The position numbers and the translations under genes were made by a program. Under the pieces are notes generated by a model. The model was not told the DNA's origin and did not search any database. It saw only the letters and a program-made list of their open reading frames with translations. Below, one piece after another: positions 2,526 to 63,970 of a stretch of 64,000 nucleotides of DNA (its first letter is position 1; each line of letters starts with the position of its first letter). Origin of the DNA: an uncultured Gemmatimonadaceae bacterium (lineage in GTDB: Bacteria > Gemmatimonadota > Gemmatimonadetes > Gemmatimonadales > Gemmatimonadaceae); contig CAWHHI010000006.1 in the NCBI GenBank assembly GCA_963829055.1, positions 512,001 through 576,000 on the forward strand. Reading direction: 5' to 3'.

Positions 2526-2988
2526 ATGAAGAACTTCTCGCCGCTGTCGCACTGCTGCCGCTCGGGCCGTACGACATCCCGCTCCAGAACACCCCGAAGA
2601 CGCCTAACGCGCAGCGGCACGGCGCGGCTCGTCTTCGCCGAGTCGCCGTTCGGCGTCGCCGTGACGGCCGACGGGCGCGCGAGCTACGACGTGCAGCTCG
2701 AGCCTCTCCGGACTGCCCGAGCCCTCGACGCTCGGGCCATACAAGGCCTACGTCGCCTGGGGCGTCACGACGGACCTCAAGCAGTGGCACCGACTCGGCG
2801 CCGGTCGACGAACGGCAAGTCCACCGTCGGGCACGATCGAGTTCAACAAGTTCCTGCTCGTCATCACGGCCGAGTCCGATTCGGCCGCCACGAAGCACGC
2901 GGGGCCGATCGCGCTCAGCGGCACGTCGCCGAGCGGGTGGCTGCAGACGTTCCTGTCGCATCCGCTGTTTCGCGGGGTCGCGCCGTGA
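2526..2988 (+). CDS. Hypothetical protein coupled to the multicopper oxidase (frameshifted)
   Basis: High-GC3 segments GTARLVFAESPFGVAVTADG...YVAW...FNKFLLVITAE...HPLFRG; TGA overlaps the GTG of the next gene. Confidence 0.55.
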
Positions 2989-4815
2989 TCCGTCGTCTGC
3001 GCGCGGTGCTCGCGCTGCGCTCATGGCCGTCGCGCCTAACGTGCACGCTCGGCCAGACGAAGCCGCCGGCGAAGAAGCCCGATCCGGCATGCCCGGGATG
3101 CCGGGCATGACGCACGACTCGGCAAGAACGACGCCGTCGAAGAAGCCGGGCGCGAAGCCGCAGCCAGCGACAGCCGGCGCCGATGAACATGCCCGGCATG
3201 AGCGGCGACAGCATGGCCGCGGGCATGCCGATCCCGATGCCGAAGGGCATGCCAATGATGCCGGGACTCATCGGGCTGACGCCGCCCGTGACGCTCGTTC
3301 CTGCCCGGCGCAGGCGTCGATCCGGCGACGGTGCCGGCCGCGAAGCCGACGCAGACGGTCCGGCTCAAGGACGGCGACACGCTCGACCTCACGGCGGGAC
3401 TCGTCAGGCGCACGATTCGCGGCCAGCGGTTCGTGATGTACGCGTTCAACGGCATGGTGCCCGGTCCGCTCATCCGCGTCGCGCAGCAGGCGACGATCAC
3501 GGTGCGCTTCCACAACAGGATCGACCTGCCGAGCACCGTGCACTGGCACGGGCTGCGGCACGACAATCGGTTCGACGGCGTCCCGGGCCTGACGCAGGCG
3601 GAGGTCGCGCCGGGCGGCGACTTCACGTACACGGTCCACTTTCCGGACGCGGGCGTCTACTGGTATCACCCGCACGTGCGCGAGGACATCGAGCAGGCGA
3701 TGGGACTCTTCGGCAACATGATCGTCGACTCGCCGGAGCCCGACTACTACTCGCCGGTGAATCGCGAGCAGTCGCTCGTGCTGAACGACCTGCTCATCAA
3801 CGCCGACACGCTGATCCCGTTCGGCAAGGAAGCGCCGACGTACGCGCTCATGGGGCGCGTCGGCAACGTGCTCACGGTGAACGGCGAGCCGGACTACAAG
3901 CTCTCGGCGCGGAAGGGCGAGGTGGTGCGGTTCTTCTTCACGAACGTCTCCAACTCGCGCACGTACAACGTCTCGTTCGGCGGCGCGCCGATGAAGGTCG
4001 TCGCGCAGCGACGTGAGCCGCTTCGAGCGCGAGGAGCGTGTGCCGAGCGTCGTGCTCGCGCCGGCGGAGCGGTACGTGGTCGAGGTGCGGTTCGACAAGC
4101 CGGGTCGCTACGCGCTCGTGAACGCGATCCAGGCGATCAACCACTTCGCTGGGCGAGTTCGAGCCCGAGGTCGACACGTTAGGCATCGTGACCGTGAGCG
4201 ACGGTGCCGGCCATCGCCCGACTACGGGTCGCGGTTCGCGACGCTGCGCGCGTACCCGGCCGTGTCGCGCGACGTCGATCGCTTCCGGCAGTACTTCGAC
4301 AAGGAGCCCGACGAGACGCTCACGCTCACGGTGCGCGCCGAACTCGCTGCCGCTCGCGACGGTGCAGTTCATGAACGTCGACACGGCGTACTTCGCGCCG
4401 GTCGAGTGGGTGGACGGCATGCCCGACATGAACTGGCTGTCCACGAGCAAGCAGGTGCAGTGGATCCTGCGCGACGGATGCGACGGGCAAGGAGAACATG
4501 GACATCGACTGGCACGTGAAGCAGGGGTCGGTGGTGAAGCTCCGGATCTTCAACGATCCGAAGTCGTTTCATCCGATGCAGCACCCGATCCATCTGCACG
4601 GCCAGCGCATGCTCGTCGTGTCGCGCGACGGCGTGAAGACGCGCAATCTCGTCTGGAAGGACACGGTCATCATCCCCGTGGGGTCGACGGTCGATCTGCT
4701 GATCGACGCGTCCAATCCGGGAGCGTGGATGCTCCACTGCCACATTGCCGAGCATCTGGAGTCGGACATGATGGCGGTGATGCACGTGGACGCGGTAGGC
4801 GATGGCAAACGTTAG
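2985..4815 (+). CDS. Multicopper oxidase with Met-rich N-terminus (frameshifted)
   Basis: All four copper motifs present: HWHG, WYHPH, HPIHLHG, HCHIAEHLESDM. Confidence 0.9.
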
Positions 4816-4830
4816 GCTCCCGGGTCGAGG

Positions 4831-4968: not shown

Positions 4969-5966
4969 GCATTGGCTCCGACCTGATCACTCAAGCGCCT
5001 CACCGCACGCCGGAGTTCGAACGTGCCGAGTCGCTGATTCGTCAGCGGTTCGCGCCATCGCGATTGGTCAAATCGACAGCGCTCTCGGATCGTCTCGGAG
5101 CGGACGTGCACCTCAAGCTCGAATGCGAGCTGCCGACTGGCTCCTTCAAGGTGCGCGGCGCGTACTACGCGCTCTCTCGCCAACGTGAGGGTGCCGACGT
5201 CTCCGAAGTCGTTGCGGCAAGTACGGGAAATCACGGCGCCGCCGTCGCGTGGGCGGCACGCGAGCTCGGGCTAGCCGCGAAGATTTTCGTCCCGAACGGC
5301 GCCAACGCGACGAAGATCGCGCGCATTCGCTCGCTCGGCGCTCAGCTCACGGAATCCGGAGCCGACATTGAAGGCGCACGACGCGCGGCCGAAGCGTACG
5401 TGGCCGACTCCGGCGCGTTCCTGCTCGATGACGCGACGAGCGATGACGTCCCAATCGGCGCCGGCACGATCGGTCTCGAGCTACTCGCCGAGCTTCCCGA
5501 CGCGAGCGCGGTGATCGTGCCGGTCGGCGACTCCGCGCTCATTCGCGGCGTCGCCGCCGCGATGAAGGCGATCCGACCCGACGTTCATGTCACGGGAGTG
5601 CAGGCGAGTGGAGCGCCCGCGTACTACCGCTCGTGGAAAGCTGGTACCGTCGTGACGACCGAGACCGCGGACACGATCGCCGACGGCCTCGCGACGACGC
5701 GTCCAACTGACTCGAACGTGACGGCCATCCGGGCGCTCGTCGATGGGATGGTGCTCGTCGACGAGCGGGACATGCTCGACGCGATGCGATGGCTACGAGC
5801 ACATGAGAGTATCGTGGCCGAACCTGCGGGCGCCGCCGCTGTGGCAGTCCTGTTGAACGCGCATGCGTGGCCGTTTTCATCGACGGTTGCATTGATCACC
5901 GGCGGGAACGTCGCGCCCGATCTGGCGATGGCACTCGCTGGCGGCGATTCCTCTTCCACGCGTTAG
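4944..5966 (+). CDS. PLP-dependent threonine/serine dehydratase family protein
   Basis: LKLECELPTGSFKVRGA (PLP lysine), ASTGNHG, VPVG, EPAGA, ITGGN; start uncertain. Confidence 0.9.
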   Translation: MTAVARHDSIGSDLITQAPHRTPEFERAESLIRQRFAPSRLVKSTALSDRLGADVHLKLECELPTGSFKVRGAYYALSRQREGADVSEVVAASTGNHGAAVAWAARELGLAAKIFVPNGANATKIARIRSLGAQLTESGADIEGARRAAEAYVADSGAFLLDDATSDDVPIGAGTIGLELLAELPDASAVIVPVGDSALIRGVAAAMKAIRPDVHVTGVQASGAPAYYRSWKAGTVVTTETADTIADGLATTRPTDSNVTAIRALVDGMVLVDERDMLDAMRWLRAHESIVAEPAGAAAVAVLLNAHAWPFSSTVALITGGNVAPDLAMALAGGDSSSTR

Positions 5967-5971
5967 GCACC

Positions 5972-9791: not shown

Positions 9792-9843
9792 CCGGCTCGG
9801 CGTCGGCCGGATTCGTTAGGTAGAAACCACACGCATCAGCCAT

Positions 9844-10477
9844 ATGCCCACGATCTACACCCCGCAGATCATCGAGCGGTCGAGCCGCGGTGAGCGGACG
9901 TACGACATCTATTCGCGGCTCCTCATGGACCGCATCATCTTCCTCGGTACCGAGCTCGACGATGATGTGGCGAACATCATCATCGCGCAGCTGCTCTTTC
10001 TCGAGGCGGACAGTCCGGGCAAGGACATCCAGATGTACATCAACTGCCCGGGCGGGAGCGTGTCGGCTGGTCTGGCGATCTATGACACGATGCGCTACCT
10101 CGAGTCGCCGGTCGGCACGACGTGCATGGGCATGGCGGCGAGCATGGGATGTTTCCTGCTTGGCGCGGGTCACGCGGGCAAGCGCCGGTCGCTGCCGCAG
10201 GCGCGCATCATGATGCATCAGCCGTCGCAGGGCGGGATGCAGGGCGTCGCGGCGGACATCGAGATCGTCGCCAGGGAGATCCTGTACATGCGCGCGAAGA
10301 TGAACGAGCTCCTCGCGCGCCACACGGGTCAGCCGGTCGAGCGTATCGAGCGGGACTTCGACCGCGACCGGTGGATGTCGGCGCCCGAGGCGGTGGCCTA
10401 TGGCTTCATCGATCAGGTGATCGAGTTGCCAGGTACGCTCGTCGAGAAGCGTGATTCCATCGATTCCTGGCAGGTAG
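9844..10477 (+). CDS. clpP: ATP-dependent Clp protease proteolytic subunit
   Basis: [27 protein letters not shown] (Ser), MHQP (His), DRD (Asp); nearest TAG (10475-10477) is one base out of frame, so the called ORF reads into the repeat. Confidence 0.95.
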
Positions 10478-10608
10478 TCATTCCGCGCGGATTGTCATTC
10501 CGAGCGAGCGAAGCGAGTCGAGGAATCGAGACTGTACGCTGTAGAGGGCCCTCCGTCGGGACGATCGCGATTCCTCGCTCCGGCCTTCGGCCTCCGCTCG
10601 GAATGACA
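10477..10608. repeat. GTCAT REP-like element, type I, with duplicated left end
   Basis: GTCATTCCGCGC..TGTCATTCCGAGC..GTAGAGGGCCCTC..GCTCGGAATGACA. Confidence 0.85.
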
Positions 10609-10627
10609 TCCACCCATCTCCACTCTC

Positions 10628-11355
10628 GTGACGTCGCCATCCGACAGCAGCGATTCGTTCGACGTCACGGACGTCAATCGCGTTAGGCGCTATCACCAGC
10701 GCGGCCATTACGACCACGCGACCGTCTTCCGCATCCTCGACGAAGGGCTCGTCGCCCACGTCGCCTTCGTGGACGACGGCCGGCCTGTCGTGATTCCCAT
10801 GGCGTACGGCCGGGACGGCGACCGGCTGTTCCTCCACGCGGCTCGCAAGGGACGCATCACCACCACGCCCGCGGGCGAGCAGGTGAGCATTGGCGTACAC
10901 TCGTGGACGGGCTCGTCGTCGCGCGCTCGCTGTTCGACTCGTCGATGAACTACCGCGCCGTCGTCATCCACGGGCGCGCGTCCGTCGTTGAAGGCGAGGC
11001 CGAGCGGCTGCACGCGCTCAAGTGCATCGTCGAGCACATGATCCCGGGCCGATGGGCCGAGGCGGGTGTGCCGTCGGCGCAGCATCTCAAGGCTACGACG
11101 GTGCTCGAGGTCGAGATCGAGACGGCGTCAGCGAAGGTCCGCGACGGTGGCGTCAACGAGGACTACGACGCGGATTCGGCGGCGATGTGGTGCGGGGTGG
11201 TGCCGCTCGTTACGACGGTCGGGACACCCGAGGTGGATGCGGCGGTGCCGAGTGGTGTGGCGGTTCCGGCGTCGGTGCTTGGGCTCGGTCGTCGGTACGG
11301 GAGAGCCGATCGCTCGAATGACATACCCGACCAAACGATGACGTCGGCGAAATAG
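10628..11355 (+). CDS. Pyridoxamine 5'-phosphate oxidase-like flavin-binding protein (frameshift near 10900)
   Basis: [47 protein letters not shown]. Confidence 0.85.
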
Positions 11356-11428
11356 CACCCCCCGCGGTGCCGGGGCTACATTCTCTGGTCGAGACTCGAC
11401 ACGACCGACACGATCGCATTGGGCAAGC

Positions 11429-11533
11429 GTGTCATCCGGCGACCGTCGAGGGAACGTTTGTGAAGTATTTGTGGCCGGACCGGCTCGATGCCGGGCTCGA
11501 TCCGCCGACGGCAGGTCCATCCTCGGGATGACA
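11429..11533. repeat. Degenerate GTCAT REP-like element, type II
   Basis: GTGTCATCCG..GAGGGA..GTGAAGT..GTGGCCGG..CCTCGGGATGACA. Confidence 0.65.
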
Positions 11534-11558
11534 TGCAGCCCAGGAACCGCAGGGTCCA

Positions 11559-13060
11559 GTGACCGACGTATCCGCGTCCGCGCCGCCCAAGGCGACATCC
11601 ACGAGCACGCCCAGCACCGTCACGTCACGTCGGCTCTCACGACGACCGCAGAGCGGCGGCGTTACGACCGCTCGATCATCGAAGGGCCACTGCAAGGCCG
11701 CCGTGTGGAAGATCGCGTGGCCGACGATGCTCACGAACATCATCGGCGGCATGCAGGGCATCGTCGATCACGTGCTCGTCGGGCACCTCGTCGGCTACAA
11801 GGGCAACGCGGCCATCGGCGTCGCGTGGCAGATCTTCCTCATCGTCATCGCGTTCATCTCGTCGCTGTTCATCGGCATGGGCGTGCTCGTCGCGCGCTTC
11901 GCCGGCGCGGGCGATGAAGACAAGGTCGACCGCGTCGTCTACCAGGCGTTTCTGACGGCCGTCGGGATCTCGCTGTTGATCATGGCGCCGATCGGCTGGT
12001 TCGCGTCGCCGCGGCTGCTCGATCTCGTGAACGCCGCACCGCAGGTGAAGGCCGAGGCGCTGCCGTTTCTGCGCATCATGTTCCTGTGCAGCATCGGCAT
12101 GATGGTGTTCTTCATGTTAGGCGGCGCGCTTCGCGCCGCCGGCGACGCGCGGACGCCGATGATGCTCGGCATCGCGCATGACGGTGCTGAACCTCGTGCT
12201 CAACATCGTCTTCATTCGCGGACTCGGGCCCGATTCCGGCGCTCGGCACCAAGGGCGCGGCGGTGGGAACGTGCATCGCGTCGGGCATCATCGATGGTGT
12301 ACGCGCTCGTGGAAGCTCTGGAGTGGCACGTGGGTCGTGAAATTTCCACGCGGCCAGGGATTCGGACCGGACTGGGCGATCATCCGATCGCTGTTCAGGT
12401 TCGGCCTGCCGTCCGGAATTCAGGGCATCGCGATGAACGTCGGCGGGACGCTGATGCTCGCGTTCATCGGCTCGGTGGCGCAGGGGCGCGGCGGCGCAGG
12501 CGGCGTTCGCGATCGGCTACTCGCAGCTCTTCTCGCTCATCACGTGGACGTCGGTCGGACTCATGGGCGCGGCGGCCGCGGTCGCCGGCCAGAACCTCGG
12601 CGCCGCGCAATCCCGATCGTGCCAACGAGGCCGTGCACGTCGCCGCGCGCTTCGGCGTCGTCGGGCGCCGCGATCATCGGCGCGTTCTTCCTGTTCCTCC
12701 CGCGCCAGCTGCTCGGCGTGTTCGGCATGAACGACCCGGCGGTGCTCGAGATCGGCGCGCAGCTGCTGCGTGTGCTCGAGCGTCTCCGGACTGTTCATCA
12801 CGCGTCGCGCTGACGTACACCGGCGGCCTGCAGGGCACGGGCGACACGAAGAGCCCGCTCTACATCTCGATCGTCTCGCAGATCGTCGTGCCGTTAGGCA
12901 TCTGCTTCGTGATCAAGCGAGACGGGCACGCTCGCAGCCGATCCACATCTGGATCGCGATCCTGGTCGGCCACGCGACGCGATGCGTGCTGAGCGTGGTG
13001 CGGTTCAATCAGGGGAAGTGGCGGAACATCGCGGTCGCGATCGGCGGTGAGCAGGCGTAG
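11559..13060 (+). CDS. MATE family efflux transporter (multiple frameshifts)
   Basis: IAWP, VDHVLVGHL, LRAAGDARTPM, NLVLN, GLQGTGDTKSPL. Confidence 0.85.
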
Positions 13061-13061
13061 G

Positions 13062-13873
13062 ATGACTCGACGCCAGATCGCTACGACGCCTTCCGCACGC
13101 TGCATCAGTCCGGATGCTTCGTGATCCCCAATCCATGGGACCTCGGCAGCGCGCGCATGCTCGTGCACCTCGGCTTCAAGGCGCTGGCGACCACGAGCTC
13201 CGGCTTCGCGTGGTCGGTGGGTCGTCGCGACAATCACGTGTCGCTCGATCAGGCGCTCGTGCATCTGCGCGCGATCGCCGAGGGCGTGAGCGTGCCGGTC
13301 AACGCGGACTTCGAGGGCGGCTTCGCCGTCGAGCCCGAGGGTGTGGCGACGAATGTCGCGGCCGCGGTGACGACTGGTGTCGCCGGATTGTCGATCGAAG
13401 ACTCCACCGGCGACGCGAGTGCGCCGCTCTTCGACTTCGCGCTCTCCGTCGAGCGCATTCGTGCAGCGCGTCGAGCAATCGATCAGAGTCGAACTGGCGT
13501 GCTGCTCACGGGGCGCTCGGAGGGGTTCATCGTCGGACGGCCGGACCTGGCCGAGACGATCCGTAGACTGACCGCGTATGCGGAGGCAGGCGCGGACTGC
13601 CTCTATGCGCCTGGCCTCGAGACGATCGCGGACTTCAAAGCGGTCGTGGATGCAGTCGCGCCCAAGCCGGTGAACGCGCTCGTGTACAGCGACTTCGCGA
13701 CGGTCGCCGAGCTCGCGAGTCTTGGCGTGCGCCGCATCAGCATCGGCGGTGCGTTGGCTCGCGCGGCGTGGACCGGCTTCATCGCTGCCGCGACGGAGAT
13801 CGCGGAGAAGGGAACGTTCACGGGCCTGGCGCGCGCGGTTCCTTCCTCGGCCATCGAGCGCGCGTTCGACTGA
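13062..13873 (+). CDS. Isocitrate lyase / PEP mutase family protein
   Basis: PNPWD, ATTSSG, NADFEGG, SIED, AYAEAGADCLYAPG. Confidence 0.9.
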
Positions 13874-14082
13874 GCTCGTCGGCGAGCTGAGCGAATGGCG
13901 CCTACGTCAAGGCTCTCTGGCGCCGAACGGTACGTGTGCATGGCTCACGCGCACTGTCGTGCCTCTTCGAGAAGCTCGAGGGCTTTCTCGCGAGCAACCG
14001 TCCGCGCTGTGACAGGAACGCACGAATGTTGATCGCCAGGCGGAACACGGATGAGTCCGTGGCAGCAGCAAGAGTTTGCGAA

Positions 14083-14315
14083 CTGCGAACGGCATGACAG
14101 GATGGCCAGGATGGCCAGGATTTGCAGGTTGATTGGCGTAGGCGTCGAATATGCGGTCGCCAGGACCTCGTGATTCCTGTGATGCAACTCAGGGAGAGTA
14201 GCATCTCGAGCGGCTGTTCGCCGCATTCCCGGTTCGTTGCGCGAGCGAGCGTGGATGCCGACGATCTTCCTGTCAATCCTGCGCCATCCTGGCCATCCTG
14301 TCATGCAGTTCGCAG
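14083..14315. repeat. Inverted-repeat element with CAGGATGGC-periodic arms
   Basis: 14083-14128 is a near-perfect reverse complement of 14269-14315; a related arm lies at 52085-52121. Confidence 0.75.
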
Positions 14316-14442
14316 GTCCTCGCCCCGGTCCGAGCCGAGCCACTCCTCGCCGCGAGCCGGAGCGTCGAGTACGTTCTTTCCTCCTCGGCGTACCGTCTGT
14401 ATCCGCACCTGTCTGCTGCCCGCACGCGATACCGGAGACTGA

Positions 14443-52537: not shown

Positions 52538-53188
52538 TCAAGCAGCATGCTGCAGTTGATCCATGGTCTCCTGCACAATCTCGATCTCGTCGCCGCTGAC
52601 GGTGTGTCCCATGCCCGGGTAGAGCTTTCGCGTCACCGCTGCACCGAGGCGGCGGAAGACCGTCTCGCTCTCGAGCACGCGCTCGCCGGGATGTGCGGGT
52701 CGACGTCGCTGCAGCCGAGGAACACCGGCGTGCCGTCGAGCGACGTCGTGACGTCGTCCCACGTCGTTCCTGGCGGGCCGATCAGACCCGCCGCTCAGCG
52801 CCATGACGCCGCCGTAGCGTCGCGGGTGGCGGATCGAGAATTCGGACGTTAGGCATGCGCCCTGGGAAAACCCGAGCAGCATGATCTGCTGCGGCGGGAA
52901 TCCCGCGCTCGATGAGATCGCTCACGAGCGACTCGATCACGAACAGGCCCGACGAGATGCCCGGCTCGTTCTGCTCGCGTGGCGCCATGAAGCTGAGCGG
53001 ATACCACGTCCCGCCAGCGGCTGCCGGCGCCAGGTACACGAAGTCGGGCCGATCGAGGACCGCCGAACGAGCTCGAGGATGTTCGCCGGGGCCGGCGTTC
53101 CGGCCGTGAATCATGATCATGGCGGCACGTGCGGTCGTCGAGCGGCGGCGCCGGCGCGCAGGATCGGCTGACCGGCGTGTGGCTGCAT
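52538..53188 (-). CDS. Phospholipase/carboxylesterase (MhqD-like; frameshifted)
   Basis: IHGR, WYP.SF, GFSQG, YPGMGH. Confidence 0.8.
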
Positions 53189-53206
53189 TGGTCGAGAATC
53201 TGCCGG

Positions 53207-54154
53207 TCAGTAGCGAACGTTAGGCAGCTGCGCTTCGATCTCGGTCCGGTGCGGCTCTTCCCACGGCGGCAGCTTGAGCGCCGCGTCCGAGCTCGGCCAC
53301 CGGCTCGTCGACCGGGAAGCCGGGCCGCATCGTCGCGATCTCGAACAACACGCCGCCCGGCTCGCGGAAGTAGATCGACTTGAAAGTACTGCCGGTCGCG
53401 CACGGCGGTGACCTGCGCGCGCCCGACCAGCTCCTCGCGCAGTCTTCAGCTGCTCGTCCTCGCTGCCGATGGCCATCGCGACGTGGTGCACGGTGCCGAG
53501 CCCGTTCTTCGCCCACGCCGCATCGCCGGCATGGACAATGTCCATCACCTTGCCTGGGCCGTCGCCGTTGACGGCGACGCGAATGCGGCCCTCCATCTCG
53601 TTCACGACCTCGAAGCCGAGCATGTCGCGCATGAACTCCACGGTCCGGCGCGGCTCGCGGACCTCGAGCGACACGCTGTGGAGGCCCGCGCACGGCAGAC
53701 GTCGCGTCTACACCGCCGGCGGTCCACGGGGACACGCGTATCCTGCGTCGTTCGCCACGAGCTCGATGACGAGGCCCGATGGGTCGGTGATGACGATCGA
53801 CTCTTCGCCGAATCGCGGCGGGCGCGTCGGTCACCGTGTAGCCGCGCTCGCGAAGGCGCGTCTTCCAGGCGTCGAGTGAACCGGCGGGAACGGAGAACGA
53901 CGTGACGGTGATCTGTCCCGCGCCCTTGATGCCCGAGCGGCACGCCTCGGCCCTTGTAGGGAAAGGTCGTCCAGATCGTTCCGGGATGGCCGACCTCGTC
54001 GCCGTAGTAGAAGTGGTAGACGAAGTGGTTGTCGAAGTTGACCGTCTTCTTCACGAGACGCATGCCGAGCGCGTCGACGCTGAAGTCGAGGTCGTCCTGG
54101 GCGTCCGTCGACCGTCGCCGTGACGTGATGCAGCCCGAGGATCGGAGAGCTCAT
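53207..54154 (-). CDS. Ring-cleaving dioxygenase / glyoxalase (MhqO-like; frameshifted)
   Basis: [49 protein letters not shown]. Confidence 0.88.
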
Positions 54155-54274
54155 GGGGTGATGTAAAGCCTCAGCGGCGCGTCCAGCAAGGTTCCCGCTG
54201 ACACCGCAAGTAACATTGCGTGGTATGTTCGACCACGGCATTTCAGTCGACACCGCCTCTGCACGGGAACTCAT

Positions 54275-54828
54275 ATGACGACGTGCTGACTCGGCCCGAC
54301 CGAACGGAAGCTGCCGAGTACTACTACACGTACATCGATCAGGTGCCGCCGGATGCCGACATGCTCCGCATGCTCGAAGACGCAGCTTCCCGAGACGGTG
54401 AGCTGCTCGAGGGGATCTCGGACGAACAAGTCGCTGCACCGGTACGCACCGGACAAGTGGAGCATTCGCGAGGTGGTGAGCCACATCAACGATACAGAGC
54501 GAGTGTTCGTGTTCCGCGCCTGTGGTTCGCCCGCGGCCTCGAGCCGGCGATTGCCGAGCTTCGATCAGGACGTCGCGACTGGCGGCGCGTACGCGGACGA
54601 GCGACCCTGGCGTCAACACATCGATGAGTTCCGCGCGGTTCGCGCGGCGTCGCTGCGCGTTCTTCAAGCATCTGCCCGACGACGCGTGGACGCGTCGTGG
54701 CGATTGCGAGCGGCAATCCGTTCACGGTGCGCGCGCTCGCGTACATCACGGCCGGGCACGTCAGCGCACCACATGCGGATCCTGCTCAGGGAGCGGTATC
54801 TGTACGCGCGCGCCGTCGCCCGCCGTGA
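54275..54828 (+). CDS. DinB family protein (frameshifted)
   Basis: YYYTYI, RYAPDKWSIREVVSHINDTERVF, GH..HH. Confidence 0.8.
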
Positions 54829-56369
54829 TACGGCCGATCGACCACCTGTATCGCGGCGCGCGACCGCGTCGCCTAACGCGGTCGCGATCGCCGGGCCGGG
54901 TGAGCCGCTCACGTACGCCGAGTCTGGTAGCGTCGGTCGAGGCGCTCGCGGCCGCGCTCCAGTCGATCGATCCGATGGATCGGGAGCCGCGTCGGCATCT
55001 GCGCCCGGAACACGGTCGAGCACCTGTTCGCGTTGCTCGCGACGTACGCGGCCGGCAAGGTGTGGGTGCCGCTCAACCCGACGAACAGCGCGCGCCGACC
55101 TCGATCGAATGATCGCCGCGACGCGTCCGACGCTGATCATCGCCGACGAATCGAGCGCTCGATCGCTTCACGCCGACCGACGCGCCAGTCGATCCTGGCG
55201 AAGACGAGCGTTCGCCGGGCGAGGAGTCGACCGAGCGTTCGGCGGACTCATCGCCGACTGGCACGGCCGACGACCGACCGTGGTCGATCGCGCGGACGAC
55301 GGCGACGCGCAGATCATCAAGTTCAGCGGCGGAAGCACCGGCGCGCCGAAGCCGGTCGTGCAGTCGGTCCGCTGCGTGAACGCGCAGGTCGACGGAATCC
55401 TCGGCGTGCTTCGAGCTCGACGCGGGCGACGTCAATCTCATCGCCGCGCCGCTCACGCACGGGGCGTCGTGCTTCGTGCTGCCGATCCTCGCCGTGGGTG
55501 GACCGGCACGTGCTGGTCGAGGATCCGAAGCCGCCTCGCGTGCTCGACGCTATCGAGTCGCACGGCGTGACGACAATGTACGCGCCGCCGACGCTCATCT
55601 ACGGTATGCTCGACGACGCCTCCGTCCACGGGCGGAACTACACGCAGCCTGCGTCACGTGATCTACTCGGCCGCGCCCATGCGACCGGAGCAGATCCGCG
55701 AGGCGCAGCGCGTGTTCGGGCCGGTGATCGAGACGGCCTACGGTCAGGTGGAAGCGCCGCAGATCGTGACGGCCATGCGCGCGACGGAGCTCGCGCGCGA
55801 CGAGAATCTGGCGTCGATCGGGCGGCCGTCCCCGGTGGCGGAGGTGGCGATCATGAGCACCGACGGGCGAGCTGCTGCCTAACGGCGAGATCGGGCGAGA
55901 TCGTGGTGCGTGGCCCACTCGTCATGAACGGCTATCTCGATCGGCCCGACATGACGGCCGAGACGATCGTGGACGGCTGGCTGCATACCGGCGACCTCGG
56001 GCTGATCGACGATCGCGGCTACGTGTTCATTCGCGGCCGACTGCGCGAGGTGATCAACAGCGGTGGGTTCAAGGTCTTTCCGGGCGACGTCGAGGCTGCG
56101 CTCGCGAAGCATCCCGCGGTCGCCGAGTGCAGCGTGTTCGGCGTGCGCTGACGAGAAGTGGGGCGAGGCGGTGCACGCCGCCGTGCAGGCTGGTGCCCGG
56201 CGTGCGGTGAGCGCTGCGGAGCTGATCGCGTTCGTGAAGGCGGAGCTCGGGTCGGTGAAGGCGCCGAAGGCGATTCACTTCGTGACGCGAGCTTCCGAGG
56301 AATGCGGCGGGGAAGGTGAGTCGCGCTGCGGTACGTCGGCTGATCGAGGACGCACGCCCTAGCGCCTGA
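54825..56369 (+). CDS. AMP-binding acyl-CoA synthetase (multiple frameshifts)
   Basis: FSGGSTGAPK, YGQVE, GWLHTGDLG, GRLREVINSGG, GKV. Confidence 0.85.
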
Positions 56370-56434
56370 CTAGCTGCGGCACTGCAGGCTGCGCGCTGGG
56401 AACGATCTGCCGACGGCTGCATGCTGCGGCCGCA

Positions 56435-56632
56435 CGCTGCCCGCTGCTGCTATTAGCGCCCGGCGACCTCCGCGCTGCCGCTCGCTGACGGTCTGCCTCG
56501 AACTCGCCAGTCACGCAGCGACTGACGCAGCGATGGCGGCTCGTAGCCGTTCGCCAGGCGGGACTGAAACCTGATGACCGACGACCGAGAACTCACGACG
56601 TGCTACCGGTGAGACCGGTCGCGATGCCGGCC
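56435..56632 (-). repeat. Degenerate flank element, copy 4
   Basis: CGCTGCTGCTATTAGC (56442) and CGGGACTGAA (56559) shared, in the same order, with 32617 and 32752. Confidence 0.5.
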
Positions 56633-56674
56633 TCTAAACCAGCCTCGAACCTTTTCGCCAATTCGCCTGTCTCA

Positions 56675-56693
56675 CCTTCAGACAATCTGAAGG
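56675..56693. promoter_or_regulatory. Probable PadR operator overlapping the RBS
   Basis: CCTTCAGA-CAA-TCTGAAGG inverted repeat just upstream of padR. Confidence 0.7.
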
Positions 56694-56705
56694 AGAGCCG
56701 GAACG

Positions 56706-57066
56706 ATGGCCGAACGAGCCGGGCGAACTGCTGCAGGGCACCCTCGAGATGATGGTGCTCAAGACGCTGTCCCTCGAGCCGATGCACGGGTGGGGGATCG
56801 CGCAGCGCATCCAGCAGATGTCCAAGGACGTCTTCCTCGTGACGCAGGGGTCGCTCTACCCCGCGCTCATCCGCATGAAGCGCCGCGGATGGCTCACGAC
56901 GTCGTGGCGCGTCACCGAGAACAGCCGGCGCGCGCGGTACTACGAGCTCACCGCCGCGGGACGGCGACAGCTTGGCGTCGAGCAGGCGTCGTGGCAGCGC
57001 GCGTCCGCCGCCGTCGACTGGGTCATGAACGCCCGTTGGGCTACCGATGGAGGAGGAAGCGCATGA
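56706..57066 (+). CDS. PadR-family regulator (acidobacterial type)
   Basis: LLQGTLEM, MHGWGI, QGSLYPAL, RRARYYELT..GR. Confidence 0.9.
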
Positions 57067-59732
57067 GCATGCGAGCATGTTCTCGGACATCGTCGAGCGC
57101 GTACGCTCGATCATCTTCCGGCGCCGCGACGAGCGCGAGCTCGCCGAGGAGCTGCGACTTCCACGCGACATGGAAGCGGAGCAGCTCGAGCGTCGCGGAC
57201 AGAGCCCGAGCGAGGCTCGCCGGCGGAGCGCACTGGCGCTCGGCGGCGTCGAGCGGGTGAAGGACGACGTCCGCGACGCGCGCGGCACGCGACTCCTCCA
57301 CGACGGCGGGCGCGACTTCGGCTTCGCGCTGCGCACGCTCGCGCGCAATCCCGGCTTCGCGACGGTCGCCATCCTGACGCTCGCCGTCGGCATCGGCGGA
57401 ACGACGGCCGTGTTCAGCGCCGTCGACGCGGTGCTGCTCCAGCCGCTGCCGTACCAGCAGCCCGGCCAGCTCGTTCGGCTCTATTACACGGACGCACGAC
57501 GCAAGGAGGACCGTGGCGTCGTGACACCCGTGCACTTTCTCGACTACCGCGCAGAGCATGGCGTCGTTCGGGTCGATGGCGGCGCTCGTTCCTGTACAAC
57601 GAGACCGGCGCCGACATCGGCACCGGCGACGACGTCAGGCGCATCCGATTGCTCCCGGTCAGCGCCGACTACTTCGACGTCGTGCGCGTGCAGCCGGTCG
57701 ATCGGGCAGCGCGTTCGGACGCGACGAGGAGAACGGCGGAGCGACGGTCGTCGTCCTCAGCCACGCGCTGTGGAAGGAACGGTTCGGCGCGAAGCCCGTC
57801 GGCCGTCGGCCAGTCACTGACGATGAACGGCCGATCGTACACGGTGGCCGGCGTGATGCCCGACGGATTCGTCGATCCGCTCGCCGGCGCGGTCGACGCG
57901 TGGGTGCCCGGGGACCTCGGCCCGGGTCGGGATCTCGACAACGTCGACAATCACTATCTCTCCGTCATCGCGCGGCTGCGCCCGGACGTGACGATCGCGC
58001 GGGCGCAGGGCGGAGCTCGACCGACTCAGCGCGACGCTGGCCGAGCGGTATCCGCGACGCGCGGTACGCGGGCGCGAGGCTCGACCCACTCAAGGAGGAC
58101 ATCGTCGGGGAATCGAGCGGCCGCTCCAGATCATGCTCGGCGCCGTGGCGCTGGTGCTCGTGCTGATCTGCGTGAACCTCGCGAACCTGCTGCTCGTGCG
58201 CGGCATCGGACCGCGCGCGCGAGTTCGCGCTCCGTTCTGCGTTAGGCGCGGAGCGGCGGCGACTCGTCCGGCAGACACTCATCGAGAGCCTGACGCTGGC
58301 GCATCGCCGGCGACATCGCGGGTATCGTCGTGGCGCGGTTCGCGATGACGGCGATCGTCGCGACTCGGCGCCGGCTCGATCCCGCGACTCTCGTCGCTCA
58401 CGCTCGAGCCGCGACTGCTCGCTGTTCTCGCTCGTCATCGCGTCGCTCAGCGCTCTCGGGTTCGGGCTCGCGCCGGCGCTACGAGCGGCGAGGACGCAGC
58501 CCGGCGACGTGCTTCGCGAGCAGAGCCGCTCGTCGACGAGCGGCGGCGTGCAGATGCGACTACGGCAGTGGCTCGTCGTGTCGCAGGTCGCGCTCGCGTT
58601 CGTGCTGCTCGTGGGCGCAGGGCTGCTGATCGCGAGCTTCCAGCGAATCCGGCAGGTGCCGCTCGGCGTCAAGCCCGACGGGCGTGCTGACGTTCGAGCT
58701 GCACTTGCCGGACGCGCGCTACGATTCGACGGCCCGCGCCCGCTTCTACGAGACGGTGGCCGAGCGGACTGGCCACGCTGCCGGGCGTCGTCGGCGGCGG
58801 GTGGCGTGATCGAAGCTGCCGGCGACGGGCGACTACAACATCTGGGGCACGCGAGCCTGTGACCGGTCCGCTCGCGAACACCGACGCGGTCGAACATAGC
58901 GGCGCAGAATCGCGTCGTCTCCGGGAGATACTTCGACGTCGTCGGCATTCCCCTTGCTCGACGGTCGGCTGTTCGATGAGCACGACGACGCGTCGCGCGC
59001 CGCGCCGCGTGATCGTCAGTCGAGCGGTCGCTGAGCGACTGTTCCCGGGCGTGCGGGCGGTCGGACAGCGCCTGACGACCGGCGACGGCGACCGCGAGAT
59101 CATCGGCGTCGTCGGCCGACGTCGCGCTCGACCCGCAGGGCCGGGCAGGGCGGGTACGTCTATCATCCGCATCGGCAGTTCGCCGGCGACCGAAACTGGG
59201 CGCTCACGCAGGTCGTGCGCACGACGGGCTCGCTGGACGCGCTGCAGGGCAGTGCACGGCGCGTGATCGCGTCGCTCGACCCGCAGCTCGTGATGTACAA
59301 GCCCATGCGCGCTCACCGAGGCGATCGGGCGAGGCGAGGCGCAGCGCGTGTTCACGCTGCGACTGCTGACGACGTTCGCCGGCGTCGCGCTGGCGCTGGC
59401 CGCGCTCGGACTGTTCGGCGTGCTGTCCTACGGCGTGCGGCTCCGCAGCCGCGAGTTCGGGATTCGCATGGCGCTCGGTGCCGATCGCGGGTCGATTCGC
59501 CGCATGGTCATGCGCGAGGGACTGATGGTGACGGCGATCGGCACGCTCCTCGGCTTGTTAGGCGCGGTGGCACTGTCGCGGCTGCATGGCGTCACTGGTC
59601 TTCGGCGTGAGCGCGCTCGACCCGACGGTGATCGTCGGCGCGGCGGTGTTCATGGCGGTCGTCGCGGCGTTTGCGGCCTACTTGCCGGCGCATCGGGCGA
59701 CGTCGGTCGAGCCGAGCACGGTATTGCAGTAG
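57063..59732 (+). CDS. ADOP-type duplicated ABC permease (many frameshifts)
   Basis: [44 protein letters not shown]. Confidence 0.88.
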
Positions 59733-59905
59733 GGAAATCCGGCGGCAGTAGGGATATCCGGCGGCGGCATGGCCAGTATGAAGTGCGTCAGTTACTCAGG
59801 TTCAGGTTTCAGGTATCAGGTGCAAAAGCGTTCACCCTGATACCTGAAACCTCCTACTGACGGCTCACACGCTGATAACTGGCCAGGCTGCGAGATGATG
59901 CCGGC
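59726..59905 (+). repeat. ATCCGGCGGC-family hairpin element, copy 3, with 19-bp tandem duplication at its start
   Basis: GCAGTAGGGA(A/T)ATCCGGCGGC twice; internal IR AGGTTTCAGGTATCAG/CTGATACCTGAAACCT. Confidence 0.75.
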
Positions 59906-59907
59906 GA

Positions 59908-60351
59908 TCATTCCACCTCGACGTGGCCCTTCATACCTAACGCCGCGTGCGGGTCGCACTGGAAGTAGTACTTGCCGGGCGCCATGGTCACCAGAATGTC
60001 GTGCGTCTGCCCTGGCAGCTGCAGCATTTCCGAAGTCGCGGGGAGCCCCGTCTTGATCGTGTTCGAGTCGGGAAGGAAGTTCACGTTATGCACGCCGACC
60101 TTGAGCGTGTATCGGATCACGTCACCCTTGTGGACCTCGAACTCGCTCGGTGAGAAGCGGCTGCTGGTCTCGTCCGTGACCATCTCGACGACGACCACCT
60201 TGCCACCTGGAGCGGGCGTCACCTCGCCCGACGGCCCCGCCGCTGACGGTGCGGCCGACGGGGAACTGTCCGCCGGCTTCGTCTGCTCGGCGCCCTTGCA
60301 ACCGGCGAAGACGAACAGCGCGCCAAGCGCGAGGACTCTCATGCTGTGCAT
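59908..60351 (-). CDS. Plastocyanin/azurin-like cupredoxin lipoprotein
   Basis: Lipobox FAGC; type 1 Cu ligands HNV and CDPHAALGM. Confidence 0.88.
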   Translation of the reverse strand: MHSMRVLALGALFVFAGCKGAEQTKPADSSPSAAPSAAGPSGEVTPAPGGKVVVVEMVTDETSSRFSPSEFEVHKGDVIRYTLKVGVHNVNFLPDSNTIKTGLPATSEMLQLPGQTHDILVTMAPGKYYFQCDPHAALGMKGHVEVE

Positions 60352-60390
60352 TGGATTGTGATTCGGTTGGTGTGTGGAGTCGCGCATCGG

Positions 60391-61194
60391 TCAGAAATCC
60401 TTACGCGCGAACGCGCGAAGTCCGAAGGCGATGGGAAGCGCTGCCCACAAGCTGAGAGCAGCGATGGCGGCGGCCGAACCGGCCGTCGTGCCGAAGAAGC
60501 GCGTGAACACGGCGCCGGTGTAGCCCATGAGCGCCGCAGTATCGGAGTGGAGCACGAGCAACACGCGCGCGAGGTCGATCGGGTTGGCGACGGTGAGCAG
60601 CAATAGCGGGCGCTCCACCGCGTGGTCGCCGAGGACGACCGTCGCGACCAGCACGACGCCGTCATACAACAGCGACGCCAGCAGCCAGATGGCCACGGCG
60701 GTCCCGAGCGCCTTCAGTCGATCCTCGACGCACGTCGCGACGAGGAACGCGAGCGCACCGAACACCACCGTCATCGCCACCGCGGTGCCGAGCAGCGACA
60801 CCACAGCGCCGACATGCCGCGCTTCGACGAGGTCGCGATGCCAGAGCAATGGCGCCGCCACGCCGGCAATCACGGCGGCGCAGAGCGGCAGGGTGAATCC
60901 CAGATACAGCCCCGCGTACAGTCTGCCGCGGCGTACGGGCTGCGCGAGCAGGAGCTCGGTGTAGTCGCGCGAGTTGTAGACGTACACCGTGCCGAAGACG
61001 GCGGTGACGAGCGGCACGACGAACAGCACGATGCTGCCGAGGCTGAGGAGTGCCTTGCTCTCGCCGCCGCCGTAGCGGAGGAGTCCCTCGCCGGTGAGCG
61101 CGAAGAAAAGAGTGTACGCGACCAGCCAGCGGCTGCGAATGAGATCGCGCGTCTGGTAGGCGATGACGCTGCGAACCGTCGACGCGGCGGTCAT
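60391..61194 (-). CDS. nosY: Nos ABC transporter permease
   Basis: VPLV, ELLLAQPV, NPIDLAR, MGYTG, RKDF. Confidence 0.85.
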   Translation of the reverse strand: MTAASTVRSVIAYQTRDLIRSRWLVAYTLFFALTGEGLLRYGGGESKALLSLGSIVLFVVPLVTAVFGTVYVYNSRDYTELLLAQPVRRGRLYAGLYLGFTLPLCAAVIAGVAAPLLWHRDLVEARHVGAVVSLLGTAVAMTVVFGALAFLVATCVEDRLKALGTAVAIWLLASLLYDGVVLVATVVLGDHAVERPLLLLTVANPIDLARVLLVLHSDTAALMGYTGAVFTRFFGTTAGSAAAIAALSLWAALPIAFGLRAFARKDF

Positions 61195-61904
61195 GCTGCC
61201 CTCCGGGTTCGCATCAACTCGGCGACCGCACGCTCGAGATTGTTCTGCCGCGTCAGGCGCTTGAGGTCCCACACGGGCCCCGCGAAGCACACACGCCCGT
61301 CGGCGAGGAAGACGACGTCATCGGCGAGCTCCTCGAGGTCGCTCATGACGTGTGATGTCACGATGACTGTGCGCCCGGAATGGCGGTCGGCGAGAACCTT
61401 GTCCTTGAGTGTTGCGCTCGACACGGGGTCGAGGCCGGCGGTAGGCTCGTCGAGGATCAGCAGGTCCGGCGAGAACGCGAAGGCGAGCGCCGCGTTGATC
61501 TTTTGCCGAGTCCCGCCGGAGAGCGTGCGCACCGGCTTGTTCAGTTGCTCGCCGAGGTCGAACGACTCGAACAGGGTCTCGTCGGCCGGTCGCGCGTCAC
61601 CGCGCAGGTCGCGCAGCATAGCGTAGAGCTCCGCGCCAGTGAGGTTGCTGGGGAATCGCGGCGCCTGCGGCATGTAGCCGATGCGGGCGCGGAACGACTC
61701 GTCGTCACCTAACGTGTGGCCATCGAACACGATGATTCCGGCGTCCGGCCGGGTGAGACCGAGCACCGACTTGAGGAGCGTCGTCTTGCCGGCGCCGTTA
61801 GGCCCGACGAGAGCCGTCACGCGGCCACGTCCGATTGTGAGGTCTACCGCCTGCAGCACATGAAGCGCGCCGAAGCGTTTGCTCAGCCCTCGCGTCTCGA
61901 TCAT
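61191..61904 (-). CDS. nosF: Nos ABC transporter ATPase
   Basis: GPNGAGKT, LSGG, DEPTAGLDP; located between nosD and nosY. Confidence 0.88.
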   Translation of the reverse strand: MIETRGLSKRFGALHVLQAVDLTIGRGRVTALVGPNGAGKTTLLKSVLGLTRPDAGIIVFDGHTLGDDESFRARIGYMPQAPRFPSNLTGAELYAMLRDLRGDARPADETLFESFDLGEQLNKPVRTLSGGTRQKINAALAFAFSPDLLILDEPTAGLDPVSSATLKDKVLADRHSGRTVIVTSHVMSDLEELADDVVFLADGRVCFAGPVWDLKRLTRQNNLERAVAELMRTRRAA

Positions 61905-63320
61905 CGGTGTCTCCGGATGGCTGGGGCCGTGTCGGTGAGTGTTTCTGGCGTGAGCGACGGCAGCGCGCGCTCGGCGGCGTCGAGGACCTGCACGAAGGCA
62001 CTGCGCAGGAGAATCAGCGCCGGACCGTGCCGCTCGACGATCATCGAGAAGAGGCGCACGGGATGATGCGGCAGATCGCCGACGCCATCGCGGTCGAGAT
62101 CGTAGCCGCGGTACGCATCCCAGTAGTTCCCAGTGAACGTGCTGGCCGGTGTTCGTGAGTTCGTGGCGACGTCGAACGTGTTGCCGACGAAGTCGTTCGC
62201 GACGAACTCGCCGTCCACGGTGCTGCCATCGAGCTTGATGGCCCACCCGTTGTCGATGAACTGATTATCGTCGCGCGACAATGCGGTTCGCGCCGTCCGC
62301 GACGAGTGCGGTCGTGTTGTCGACGAAGGCGTTATGCTCGAGGTGTGGGTCGCTGATCTCCTTGAGCAGTAGCCCGTACGCCGCGGCGCCGCGGTTTCCC
62401 TCGAACCGGTTGCCCGCCATCGTCACGCGCTTCGTGTACATGACCGCGACACCAGAGCCATTCTCGCGGAACACATTCTCCGTGTAGACGCAGTCGTCGG
62501 AGTACATGAAGTGCAGCCCGTACCGCAGGTTCGACTCGCTGACGTTGTGGCGGACGTCGGTGTCGTGCACGAACTCGAAGTAGATGCCGTCGCGATACCC
62601 GCGAACGTCATTCCTTTCAATGACGATGTGTCGCGAAGACCAGAGGTGAATGCCGTTGCCTGACGATGCTTCGGTCTTCCCCGACGCGCGCAGCACATTG
62701 TCCGCGATGCGGCACCCTTCCACCTGGGCCAGGTAGATCCCGAAGAACCCGTCGTCGATACGGTTCCGTTCGATCGTGCATCCGTGTGCGCCGCTCACCT
62801 TGATGGCCGCGCGGTCATCCACGTTACTGGCGCCGACTCGGCGGAACGTGAGCCCGCGGATCGTCACGCTGTCGGCGGTCACGGCCATGATCGTCGTTCC
62901 CCAACCGCCATCGAGCACCGCCCCCGAATCGCCGACGAGCGTCACGCGCCGATCGACGACAATGGTCGGTTCGCGATAGACGCCGGCTCGCACTGTGATC
63001 ACCGCTCCCGGCGCTGCCCGGCGTACAGCGTCGCGGATGCTCGAAACGGCGCCGTTAGGCGACACCTCGAGCTCCGCCAGCAGCGGACCGACGTACGGCG
63101 GGAGTCAGCAGGCACGTCGGCCGCGGTTTTGTCGTCGCGACGCATCGCCATATGCCCGGAGTGCACGGCCGCCTCCGCTGTCGCCGCGGACTCGGCGTGA
63201 CTCATCGCGGCAGCGCCCGACGACCGCCACGCAATCGCGCCGACGGCCGCTGAATGCCGTCGTGGCGGCAAGCACGGACGTCAGTGCGGCCGAGGATCGT
63301 CCGCCTGGGCGACACGTCAG
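61901..63320 (-). CDS. nosD: Nitrous oxide reductase maturation protein (frameshifted; start approximate)
   Basis: GNGIHLW, RDGIYFE, RYGLHFMYS, GVAVMY, GNYWD.Y.GYDLDRDGVGD. Confidence 0.9.
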
Positions 63321-63970
63321 GCACCCACTGTCCGGTGAGCGTCTGCGCCGGCGGCCGTCATGTGCTCGACGCCTAACGTCTTACTTTGCCTGCGGGGTGC
63401 TCGGGGCGCGGATACCACCAACGCGGCCGCGCCGAGAAGTATTGCGAGCCCGGCGGCGATTGCGCCGGTGGACGGCCACGACGTTGCCGTGAAGTTCAAC
63501 AGCTGCTTCGTGCCGATCAGCGGTGGCTGGTACGTCATCCCCGGCACCTTGATGATGGCGTTCTCGAAGTCGAGGTCGTGACCGTAGTCGTATTCCCACC
63601 GCCAGAAATCGGCGATGCCCACCGCGCCGAACAGCGCGAACGCGCCGAGCCATACCATCAGCCATCGTCGCCGTCCCGCCGCGGCGACGGCGAGGCCCGC
63701 GACCGCCAGCGCCGCGACGATCCACGGCATCACCTTCAGCTCGGGAATCGCGTCAGGCGAGATCACCTTCATGCCGATGTAGTGATTGAGCTGGTTGATC
63801 TTCATCAGATCGAATTCGCTCGCGCCGCGAACGGTGTTGATGTGGATCGTCATGCCGAGCCCCTCGGGGTACTGAGGGGCGCCGAGGTGCACCGTCCACA
63901 GCGGTGTCACCAGCATCGTGGCGACGGCGAGTGCCGCCGCCACGACGAGGGCTCTGGAGAGCCGATTCAT
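63317..63970 (-). CDS. nosB: Clade II nos cluster membrane protein (NosB-like)
   Basis: PLW..L.APQYPEGL, INQLNHYIGM, YDYGHDLD, YQPPLIGTKQLLNF. Confidence 0.8.
   Translation of the reverse strand: MNRLSRALVVAAALAVATMLVTPLWTVHLGAPQYPEGLGMTIHINTVRGASEFDLMKINQLNHYIGMKVISPDAIPELKVMPWIVAALAVAGLAVAAAGRRRWLMVWLGAFALFGAVGIADFWRWEYDYGHDLDFENAIIKVPGMTYQPPLIGTKQLLNFTATSWPSTGAIAAGLAILLGAAALVVSAPRAPRRQSKTLGVEHMTAAGADAHRTVGA

Follow-up and report, generated by a model that had tools for sequence, protein, structure and literature searches.

A dispersed, self-excluding octamer, CGTTAGGC, in genomes of Gemmatimonadales and of one Verrucomicrobiota order

Why is one short word written again and again, in any frame, across the genes of a Gemmatimonadaceae genome, and what might read it? 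We addressed this question on a stretch of 64,000 nucleotides (the window; contig CAWHHI010000006.1, positions 512,001 to 576,000, assembly GCA_963829055.1), in which a first-pass annotation had counted 29 GTTAGGC and 20 GCCTAAC. This count is exact and each coordinate quoted with it matches, giving 49 dispersed copies of (C)GTTAGGC between 2602 and 63377, 29 on the plus and 20 on the minus strand, while the "about 10" GTTAGG-N variants number exactly 10. A zero-order model predicts 7.2 copies in the window, as the earlier estimate of about 7 had it, at a GC content of 67.0% and not of about 69%; 100 dinucleotide shuffles give a mean of 2.1 copies and at most 6. C precedes 43 of the 49 copies, so the full word is the octamer CGTTAGGC, which is not a palindrome and has GCCTAACG as its reverse complement. 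An Rfam scan of the window returned no match, and a simple pattern search saw no CRISPR array. The copies that supply stops or fall in a Walker A motif, and the variants, are the following.

4178..4184, plus strand: GTTAGGC copy giving the TAG stop of ORF 3331-4182
4811..4817, plus strand: GTTAGGC copy giving the TAG stop 4813-4815, followed by a REP-like element at 4831
5962..5968, plus strand: GTTAGGC copy giving the TAG stop 5964-5966
10682..10688, plus strand: GTTAGGC copy giving the TAG stop of ORF 9844-10686
41940..41946, minus strand: word copy giving the TAG stop of ORF 41942-42619 (minus strand)
61797..61803, plus strand: GTTAGGC copy that encodes Pro-Asn (CCT AAC) within the Walker A motif, GPNGAGKT, of an ABC ATPase (gene 61191-61904, minus strand)
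9815..61713: ten variants GTTAGG(T/G/A), at 9815, 19485, 20159, 24315, 31490, 35289, 46824, 49099, 59935 and 61707

The TAG stops at 4813 and 5964 are as first described, and so is the Walker A copy, written GGG CCT AAC GGC (G-P-N-G) in gene 61191-61904, the gene that the first-pass annotation named NosF.

The source genome as a whole (G000, 86% complete) holds 5,004 CGTTAGGC and 7,103 GTTAGG, with a GTTAGGC density of 0.57-0.93 per kb across all 20 contigs. The first gene caller missed many genes and the second covers 73% of this frameshift-rich assembly, so that gene-based counts are approximate; on these, the 5,307 called genes contain 3,375 GTTAGGC, compared with 167-190 after a synonymous-codon shuffle (an excess of about 19-fold) and 125-129 after a codon shuffle. 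A null preserving codons or dipeptides, which had been named as a possible refutation, does not explain such counts. The word takes in 71% of the TTA codons and 36% of the TAA stops, and it tolerates other letters in a graded manner at positions 1, 6 and 8, the tolerated variants genome-wide being TGTTAGGC, CGTTAGGT/G and CGTTATGC.

The copies arise via point changes over existing codons; both strands carry them, and all four frames free of stops are used. Those in rpoB/C are substitutions in intact frames, with some sites common to several genera; relatives keep 64 of 114 word sites compared with 393 of 1,055 for control words, in pairs that are not independent, and 10-bp flanks are common to only 25-37 of 7,101 sites. 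No copies lie in an 8.4-kb stretch with rRNA primer hits or in two foreign-looking blocks. Genes of low GC3 are thinner in the word (occupancy 0.11-0.23 vs 0.34-0.35), and its density is 0.55 per kb in divergent promoter gaps vs 1.5 in convergent gaps. A Mu-like provirus carries it at host-level density (26 copies in 25.5 kb), and close to the dif-like site the density is only modestly lower.

Analysis of the distances demonstrates that copies avoid one another within about 300 bp in any orientation. The pair correlation is 0.2-0.3 below 100 bp and has risen to about 1 by 400-500 bp, whatever the orientation. Computed up to 20 kb, it stays flat past 1 kb, and no helical period is seen in the pair distances. 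Opposite-facing pairs closer than 50 bp are depleted to 0.0-0.3 of expectation, and 6% of the sites have a neighbour within 100 bp. Genome-wide, the variants with T or G as last base obey the same spacing rule as the main word. Abundance levels off near one copy per kb, and new copies are rarely gained beside an existing copy of the same word. In the Verrucomicrobiota genome G259 a second word excludes its own copies and not those of the first, and therefore the spacing is reader-specific. For comparison, HIP1 on a Nostoc plasmid (73 sites over 100 kb, a small sample) shows no short-range exclusion, with 9 gaps below 50 bp vs 2.6 expected.

The occurrence of the word is patchy within Gemmatimonadales. 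Six congeneric genomes hold 2,501-5,112 CGTTAGGC each, and the four that belong to our panel are assemblies broken into 260-1,170 contigs; the genome G014 (92% complete) holds 6,360 copies, and in the cultured, PacBio-sequenced Gemmatirosa kalamazoonensis KBS708 two megaplasmids carry the word at host-level density. Contigs from four public runs of four studies span motif sites and, among the 40 difference rows listed of 635, depart little from the window, as in the span 16092-16645, where 1 letter differs. Its presence in congeners, in the megaplasmids of a PacBio isolate and in these public contigs disposes of the base-calling artefact considered in the first pass. The word reappears in a second phylum, where 19 genomes, among 201 from a single Verrucomicrobiota order, are hyper-abundant in it as the dialect TCGTTAGGC, the difference lying at position -2; the earlier qualifier "lineage-specific" therefore has to be dropped, while the proposal of a DNA-level signal of the HIP1 or uptake-sequence kind is supported. 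No substitute word was found in 40-80 kb samples of non-enriched relatives. The tree was built on six linked genes only, with G098 left out for lack of a marker, and the unpublished genomes G013, G084, G123, G202, G388, G403, G668 and G693 enter among the non-enriched tally rows only. A viral scan gave at least 80 loci, at least 20 of them with 6 or more copies, and most of the 18 viral loci with listed sites resemble attC arrays; a metagenome scan gave 14 loci, 9 resembling G000 proteins, 1 with the T dialect and 4 ambiguous.

Our best reading, which we hold tentatively, is that of an uptake-sequence-like tag accumulated through biased recombination. Neisseria and Haemophilus recognise DNA for uptake via such tags, and to our knowledge sequence-specific uptake has been demonstrated in very few bacterial families. 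Published values are a DUS density of 0.89 per kb for N. meningitidis and a USS spacing of about 1 kb for H. influenzae (PMC2817400 / PMC7811141), two USS within 100 bp bring no added uptake (PMC7811141), and DUS exist as dialects (PMC3630211). By this tag mechanism, one sequence-specific, methylation-independent reader would bind CGTTAGGC, acting like a DNA uptake sequence receptor. Fragments bearing at least one word would be preferentially taken up and recombined, alleles that create the word would therefore spread (molecular drive), and a short fragment that already has one copy would gain nothing from another, leaving the 300-bp gap; the patchy spread and the reappearance in a second phylum may mean that the reader was gained, lost or transferred. 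Pilus genes are present in G000, as are ComEC, a ComEA-type HHH gene, DprA and RecA, and its FimT-like pilin ends in GRVRR. Against uptake, no reader was found, and none of the candidates profiled covaries with the word: ComEC is found in 48/50 and 26/26 genomes and HHH_3 in 50/50; the FimT-like gene occurs in 36/39, positives and negatives alike, and the same query gave 0/11 in the Verrucomicrobiota order. The columns of the FimT alignment separate enriched from non-enriched genomes no better than those of control proteins. ComP_DUS matched none of the 6 pilins scanned, 8 pilin-like genes being listed. Two candidate sources of a reader were rejected: the orphan pilin of C11 has clear orthologues only in the genus and does not track the word, and neither does the gene content around comEC (6 enriched vs 6 non-enriched genomes). 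The literature searched yielded no report of natural transformation in either group. Also against uptake, the provirus and the megaplasmids stand at host-level density, whereas uptake sequences are described as thin in newly acquired DNA; the low density at divergent promoters fits intracellular binding, and a self tag that two phyla have in common would be strange.

Other origins were weighed against the same evidence. Biased use of codons or dipeptides, repeat elements and errors of base calling are hardly conceivable as the origin: the assembly has many frameshifts and Pro-Asn is 1.4-fold enriched in the called genes, but the excess over synonymous shuffles, the unique flanks and the presence in congeners, an isolate and another phylum all speak against them. 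That the copies are products or targets of an integron integrase is quite improbable, and an integron-integrase origin is largely refuted. No other attC right end is as common in these genomes as the word, its tolerated variants presumably resemble attC ends as well, the few copies in non-enriched relatives sit at attC ends (the G027 array), G000 has IntI with a small array, and an IntI-type N-terminal domain occurs in 4 of 5 dense Verrucomicrobiota genomes. However, IntI is found in 14/24 enriched vs 17/26 non-enriched genomes and was not found in G014 despite its 6,360 copies, attC-oriented pairs are not in excess (130 candidate pairs genome-wide vs 7,103 cores), and neither the rarely shared flanks nor the in-frame substitutions of rpoB/C agree with it; the likeness to the integron core GTTRRRY noted in the first pass holds in its letters and applies to a small minority of copies only. 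A methyltransferase or other DNA modification that marks and drives the word, as proposed for HIP1, is improbable. Saturation at about one copy per kb and short-range exclusion match predictions of the HIP1 ratchet model (PMC4390886), and PMC13756078 has HIP1 helping transformation in a way that depends on methylation, its function open for three decades. No C5 or N6/N4 methyltransferase match was found in G000 (86% complete), its three ORFs with both adenine-methyltransferase motifs show, by eye, no DNA-methyltransferase features, and the searches for PglX and DndC gave 0/5 over the cut-off and 0/5, respectively. An HsdM-like fragment, however, adjoins a foreign-looking block, and SMRT sequencing detects m5C poorly. 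The SMRT methylome of KBS708 has three methylated motifs, RGATCY, ATGCAC and CCAGN7TCA (PMC3974934), and the word that this strain carries is not one of them.

A polar signal of Chi or KOPS type, for RecBCD/AddAB or FtsK, is very improbable. The leading strand is slightly favoured, with 368 copies to 297 near the dif-like site and 2,102 to 1,897 genome-wide, but for GGGNAGGG, which we take to be the ordinary KOPS word, the ratio on that contig is 113 to 13, and exclusion is equally strong between opposite-facing and same-facing copies, contrary to what one would expect of a one-way signal. The little strand skew reported earlier was borne out, and because the word is barely polar it is neither KOPS nor Chi. 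The main rival reading, possible but rather doubtful, is that a monomeric DNA-binding protein reads the word inside the cell, in chromosome organisation or in methylation-free strand choice during heteroduplex repair; one site would serve about 300 bp on each side, nearby extras being useless or harmful. The orientation-independent, word-specific exclusion, the graded tolerance at positions 1, 6 and 8, the sparse divergent promoter gaps, the host density of megaplasmids and provirus and the identical word in two phyla would suit such a protein, whose stand-alone gene could cross phyla more easily than a pilus part; a saturating repair ratchet with about one site per kb has been modelled for HIP1 (PMC4390886). 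Against it, no candidate was seen among the G000 proteins with a match in the 783 kb of G259 compared (27% of its 2.9 Mb), as judged by eye from N-terminal sequence, and the same comparison showed by eye only housekeeping-type matches as regards a transferred gene. Furthermore, mutL lies among unrelated housekeeping genes, the drop in density close to the dif-like site is only modest and the pair distances lack a helical period. From the options listed in the first pass, methylation, a polar signal and an integron integrase become unlikely, and uptake and an intracellular binding protein remain; of the genes profiled, those for methyltransferases, PglX, DndC, ComEC, HHH_3 and IntI do not track the word.

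New here are the exclusion, the second phylum, the second self-excluding word and the carriage by KBS708, with a methylome that does not list the word. The word is undescribed in the open-licence PMC and bioRxiv texts searched, a scope outside which supplements and subscription papers could list it. We further consider it conceivable, with some doubt, that a portable reader gene moved between Gemmatimonadales and the Verrucomicrobiota order, rewriting whole genomes (core genes, megaplasmids, prophages) toward one CGTTAGGC per few hundred bases, readers being modular and one genome having two that each space their own word. If true, this would represent a transferable genome-tagging drive, either a cross-phylum DNA-exchange dialect or an unmethylated intracellular counterpart of HIP1; if one reader were common to both phyla, a mobile gene would be reshaping codon use genome-wide. 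Two phyla, both abundant and poorly cultured, now have a comparable word, and their sister lineages differ in whether they are enriched. The measurable length scale of about 300 bp, the control that the second, independent word provides and the published methylome of a cultured strain are assets, and therefore uptake drive and intracellular binding can be directly tested against each other.

Among known systems, the attC right core GTTRRRY has identical letters, and true attC sites in both phyla end in CGTTAGGC, whereas almost all copies are single, in or beside core genes, and lack a partner inverse core 40-140 bp away. Chi and KOPS are likewise non-palindromic octamers over-represented in coding DNA; here, in contrast, only 53-55% of copies lie on the leading strand and the genome has a separate, strongly polar KOPS word. 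HIP1 (GCGATCGC) and the alternate HIPs of cyanobacteria are octamers in genes, in any frame, at about one per kb, kept beyond control words and sporadic across their clade; the present word differs in being non-palindromic, without a cognate methyltransferase found and outside the methylated motifs of KBS708. The DUS of Neisseriaceae (receptor ComP) and the USS of Pasteurellaceae differ in sequence and phyla, in the ComP-type gene, of which none was found here among the 6 pilins scanned, in their inverted terminator pairs at gene ends, absent here, and in the proportion of sites with a neighbour within 100 bp (23% for USS vs 6%), and the present word is common to two phyla. They resemble it in being non-palindromic, at about one per kb in both orientations, of point-mutation origin, more evenly spread than random and divided into dialects, in being thinner in low-GC3 genes and in being thin in rRNA and foreign DNA, with one provirus and two megaplasmids as the exceptions here.

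The exact count in the window is 29 GTTAGGC and 20 GCCTAAC, in agreement with the copies and positions listed by the first-pass annotation, and dinucleotide shuffles give a mean of 2.1 copies and a maximum of 6. C precedes 43 of the 49, extending the heptamer to CGTTAGGC (the word). In the source genome (G000; 7.78 Mb, 20 contigs; MutL 82-85% identical to the closest Gemmatimonas sp. or Gemmatimonadaceae relatives) the iteration suspected from the window extends to the whole assembly: the word has 5,004 copies against 257 expected under an order-3 Markov model, and ranks top among 7- and 8-mers relative to that model. GTTAGGC totals 5,630 and the core GTTAGG 7,103; across the 20 contigs the density of GTTAGGC stays between 0.57 and 0.93 per kb.

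Within 5,307 genes from our own caller (73% of G000 covered), 3,375 GTTAGGC are spread over all four stop-free frames, against 167-190 after synonymous shuffling (n=3) and 125-129 after codon shuffling (n=2) of the same genes. Codon bias is thus rejected, and the DNA-level cause that the annotation had deduced from frame independence withstands the codon-preserving null it had itself named. The motif does force TTA codons, as was claimed, since 1,754 of 2,480 in the called genes lie inside the core, as do 247 of 678 TAA and 176 of 1,394 TAG stops. A repeat element is rejected because flanks are almost never common: a 10-bp flank common to at least three other sites occurs upstream of 25 and downstream of 37 of 7,101 sites. 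The artefact reading of the word was likewise rejected. In rpoB/C alignments copies overwrite codons through one to three substitutions, and several occupy identical alignment positions in G000, G001, G005 and G014; across nine relatives, which are not independent of each other, the core is retained in 64 of 114 cases versus 393 of 1,055 for control words.

The copies avoid one another. Gaps below 100 bp between cores number 213 against 629 expected in G000 (10 against 26 in G014), a deficit absent from seven control patterns, five of them distinct. For CGTTAGGC the pair correlation stands at 0.2-0.3 for distances under 100 bp and climbs to about 1 by 400-500 bp, with similar values for same-facing, converging and diverging pairs. 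Places where the protein sequence permits the word (Pro-Asn; x-Leu-Gly) use it in 4% of cases when another copy lies less than 50 bp away; this share rises to 18% for distances of 100-200 bp and to about 40% for 500-1,000 bp. The variants TGTTAGGC, CGTTAGGT, CGTTAGGG and CGTTATGC are scarce near canonical sites (0.25-0.37), and CGTCAGGC, CGTGAGGC and CGTTCGGC are not (1.0-1.1), a pattern that outlines a graded binding preference.

Intergenic density in G000 is 1.5 per kb in convergent, 1.12 in tandem and 0.55 in divergent gaps, with peaks at stop codons and just downstream on both strands. A REP-like intergenic element starting TGTCATTCCGAGCG was also seen, with 16 window matches (including 4831, 10493, 17184, 18501, 27321, 43881 and 50064) and about 700 copies of its 10-mers in G000. 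Two motif-free blocks, whose duplicate housekeeping genes have a foreign appearance, are probably mis-joined contaminant DNA:
G000:C6:6854-55038, motif-free block
G000:C11:7377-44055, motif-free block

Among 41 genomes, eight carry 2,501-6,360 copies (G014 and the seven members of genus g1), another eight have 173-605 and 25 only 3-65, each of these 25 falling below its own reversed-word control; the few copies of non-enriched genomes are often attC ends. A further 200 genomes from this phylum include 11 with 173-1,100 copies, all in the same order, outside which no genome exceeds 70 (62 genomes); G230 reaches 7,821 in 6.1 Mb. In a six-gene tree g1, G014, G021, G120 and G164 form one enriched clade (support 0.97), and the remaining enriched genomes alternate with non-enriched sisters in three families. 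Short tandem arrays of repeats containing CGTTAGGC were observed at G225:C3:1511531-1511879 and in L288, with the repeats spaced 71 bp and 108 bp apart; elsewhere these genomes or contigs have few copies.

A viral scan led beyond this phylum:
L268/L360 (G229), Mu-like provirus, 26 dispersed CGTTAGGC in 25.5 kb, mostly in the dialect TCGTTAGGC (T at position 2 before the core); reversed-word control 2
The nearest named relative of its terminase (79% identical) is from Chthoniobacterales, its probable host. In the order of G226 (Verrucomicrobia), which we read as Chthoniobacterales, 19 of 201 genomes hold 152-2,512 copies, five of them at least 1,485; no genome exceeds 104 in a Verrucomicrobiota-wide sample of 221. 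The lineage-specific signal first suggested therefore holds within the Gemmatimonadota survey, where it is confined to one order, and fails beyond it. G700, one of 151 genomes from the phylum of G228 (Vicinamibacterales), has 299 strand-balanced copies in 4.9 Mb and is possibly a third lineage.

G259 (57% GC; its ribosomal protein S7 matches a Verrucomicrobiota sequence at 92% identity) uses TCGTTAGGC: T stands at -2 in 83% of its copies, versus 30% in G000. These copies fall in the same four frames as those of G000 and exclude one another (0.20 below 50 bp, 0.56 at 50-100 bp). The genome also has a second iterated word, TGTCGATCT(T) or (A/T)TGTCGATCTT, with 1,227 copies in 783 kb (L367-L406), in all six frames; it is not enriched in G000 and is absent from the provirus. 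It self-excludes at 50-150 bp (0.38-0.59; 1.29 below 50 bp), and the two words show no mutual exclusion (1.18-1.45). Since each excludes itself and not the other, the spacing is word-specific, which is what separate readers, one per word and each with diminishing returns, would produce.

The search for a reader gene did not find one. Nearly all genomes, whether enriched or not, have ComEC, HHH_3 proteins and a FimT-like pilin, so these do not track the word; no transferred DNA-binding gene is evident between the G000 proteome and 27% of the G259 genome. The pilin, conserved across Gemmatimonadales and frameshifted in the G000 assembly, ends in what is presumably the FimT motif:
G000:C8 ~164900-165330 (L090; orthologues L421-L455), orphan FimT-like pilin ending GRxR
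G000:C20:198000-209000, integron, IntI at 208008-208985 and a short cassette array
Further attC-like sites are scattered through G000, whose 7.8 Mb yielded just three tyrosine recombinases. Among the matches listed, viral contigs L240, L247, L253, L273, L275, L299 and L316 carry attC-like arrays with very short cassettes, adjoined in L247 by terminase-, portal- and capsid-like genes.

The word is dispersed, built by point mutation, near strand-neutral, subject to a word-specific exclusion of about 300 bp, and present in two phyla. We tentatively propose that it accumulated by biased uptake and recombination, as DUS/USS did: word-bearing DNA would be preferentially taken up and recombined. Two USS less than 100 bp apart give no extra uptake (PMC7811141). 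Against this proposal stand the absence of terminator pairs and of a covarying pilin, the thinness of the word in promoters, and its host-level density in the provirus and megaplasmids (701 and 778 copies versus 19 and 20 for controls in the two of the cultured Gemmatirosa kalamazoonensis KBS708). That the word is instead a site read inside the cell is the rival reading, possible though less probable.

Other readings have little to recommend them. A methylation ratchet is very improbable: the methylome of KBS708, the one strain with such data, lists RGATCY, ATGCAC and CCAGN7TCA only (PMC3974934), and searches for a suitable methyltransferase, PglX or DndC came up empty. Integrase action on the word seems scarcely credible, IntI being present in 14 of 24 enriched versus 17 of 26 non-enriched genomes. 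At C16 ~561 kb of G000 lies what we take to be a dif-like site, coinciding with a GC-skew switch. The leading-strand split around it is 113:13 for GGGNAGGG, presumably the ordinary KOPS word, and 368:297 for CGTTAGGC, in line with the little strand skew noted at first; a Chi/KOPS-type signal is most unlikely.

No description of the word was found in open-access papers (without supplements), and so far as searched it is new to the literature. The word works like an uptake sequence or HIP1, though it lacks features that mark each of these classes.
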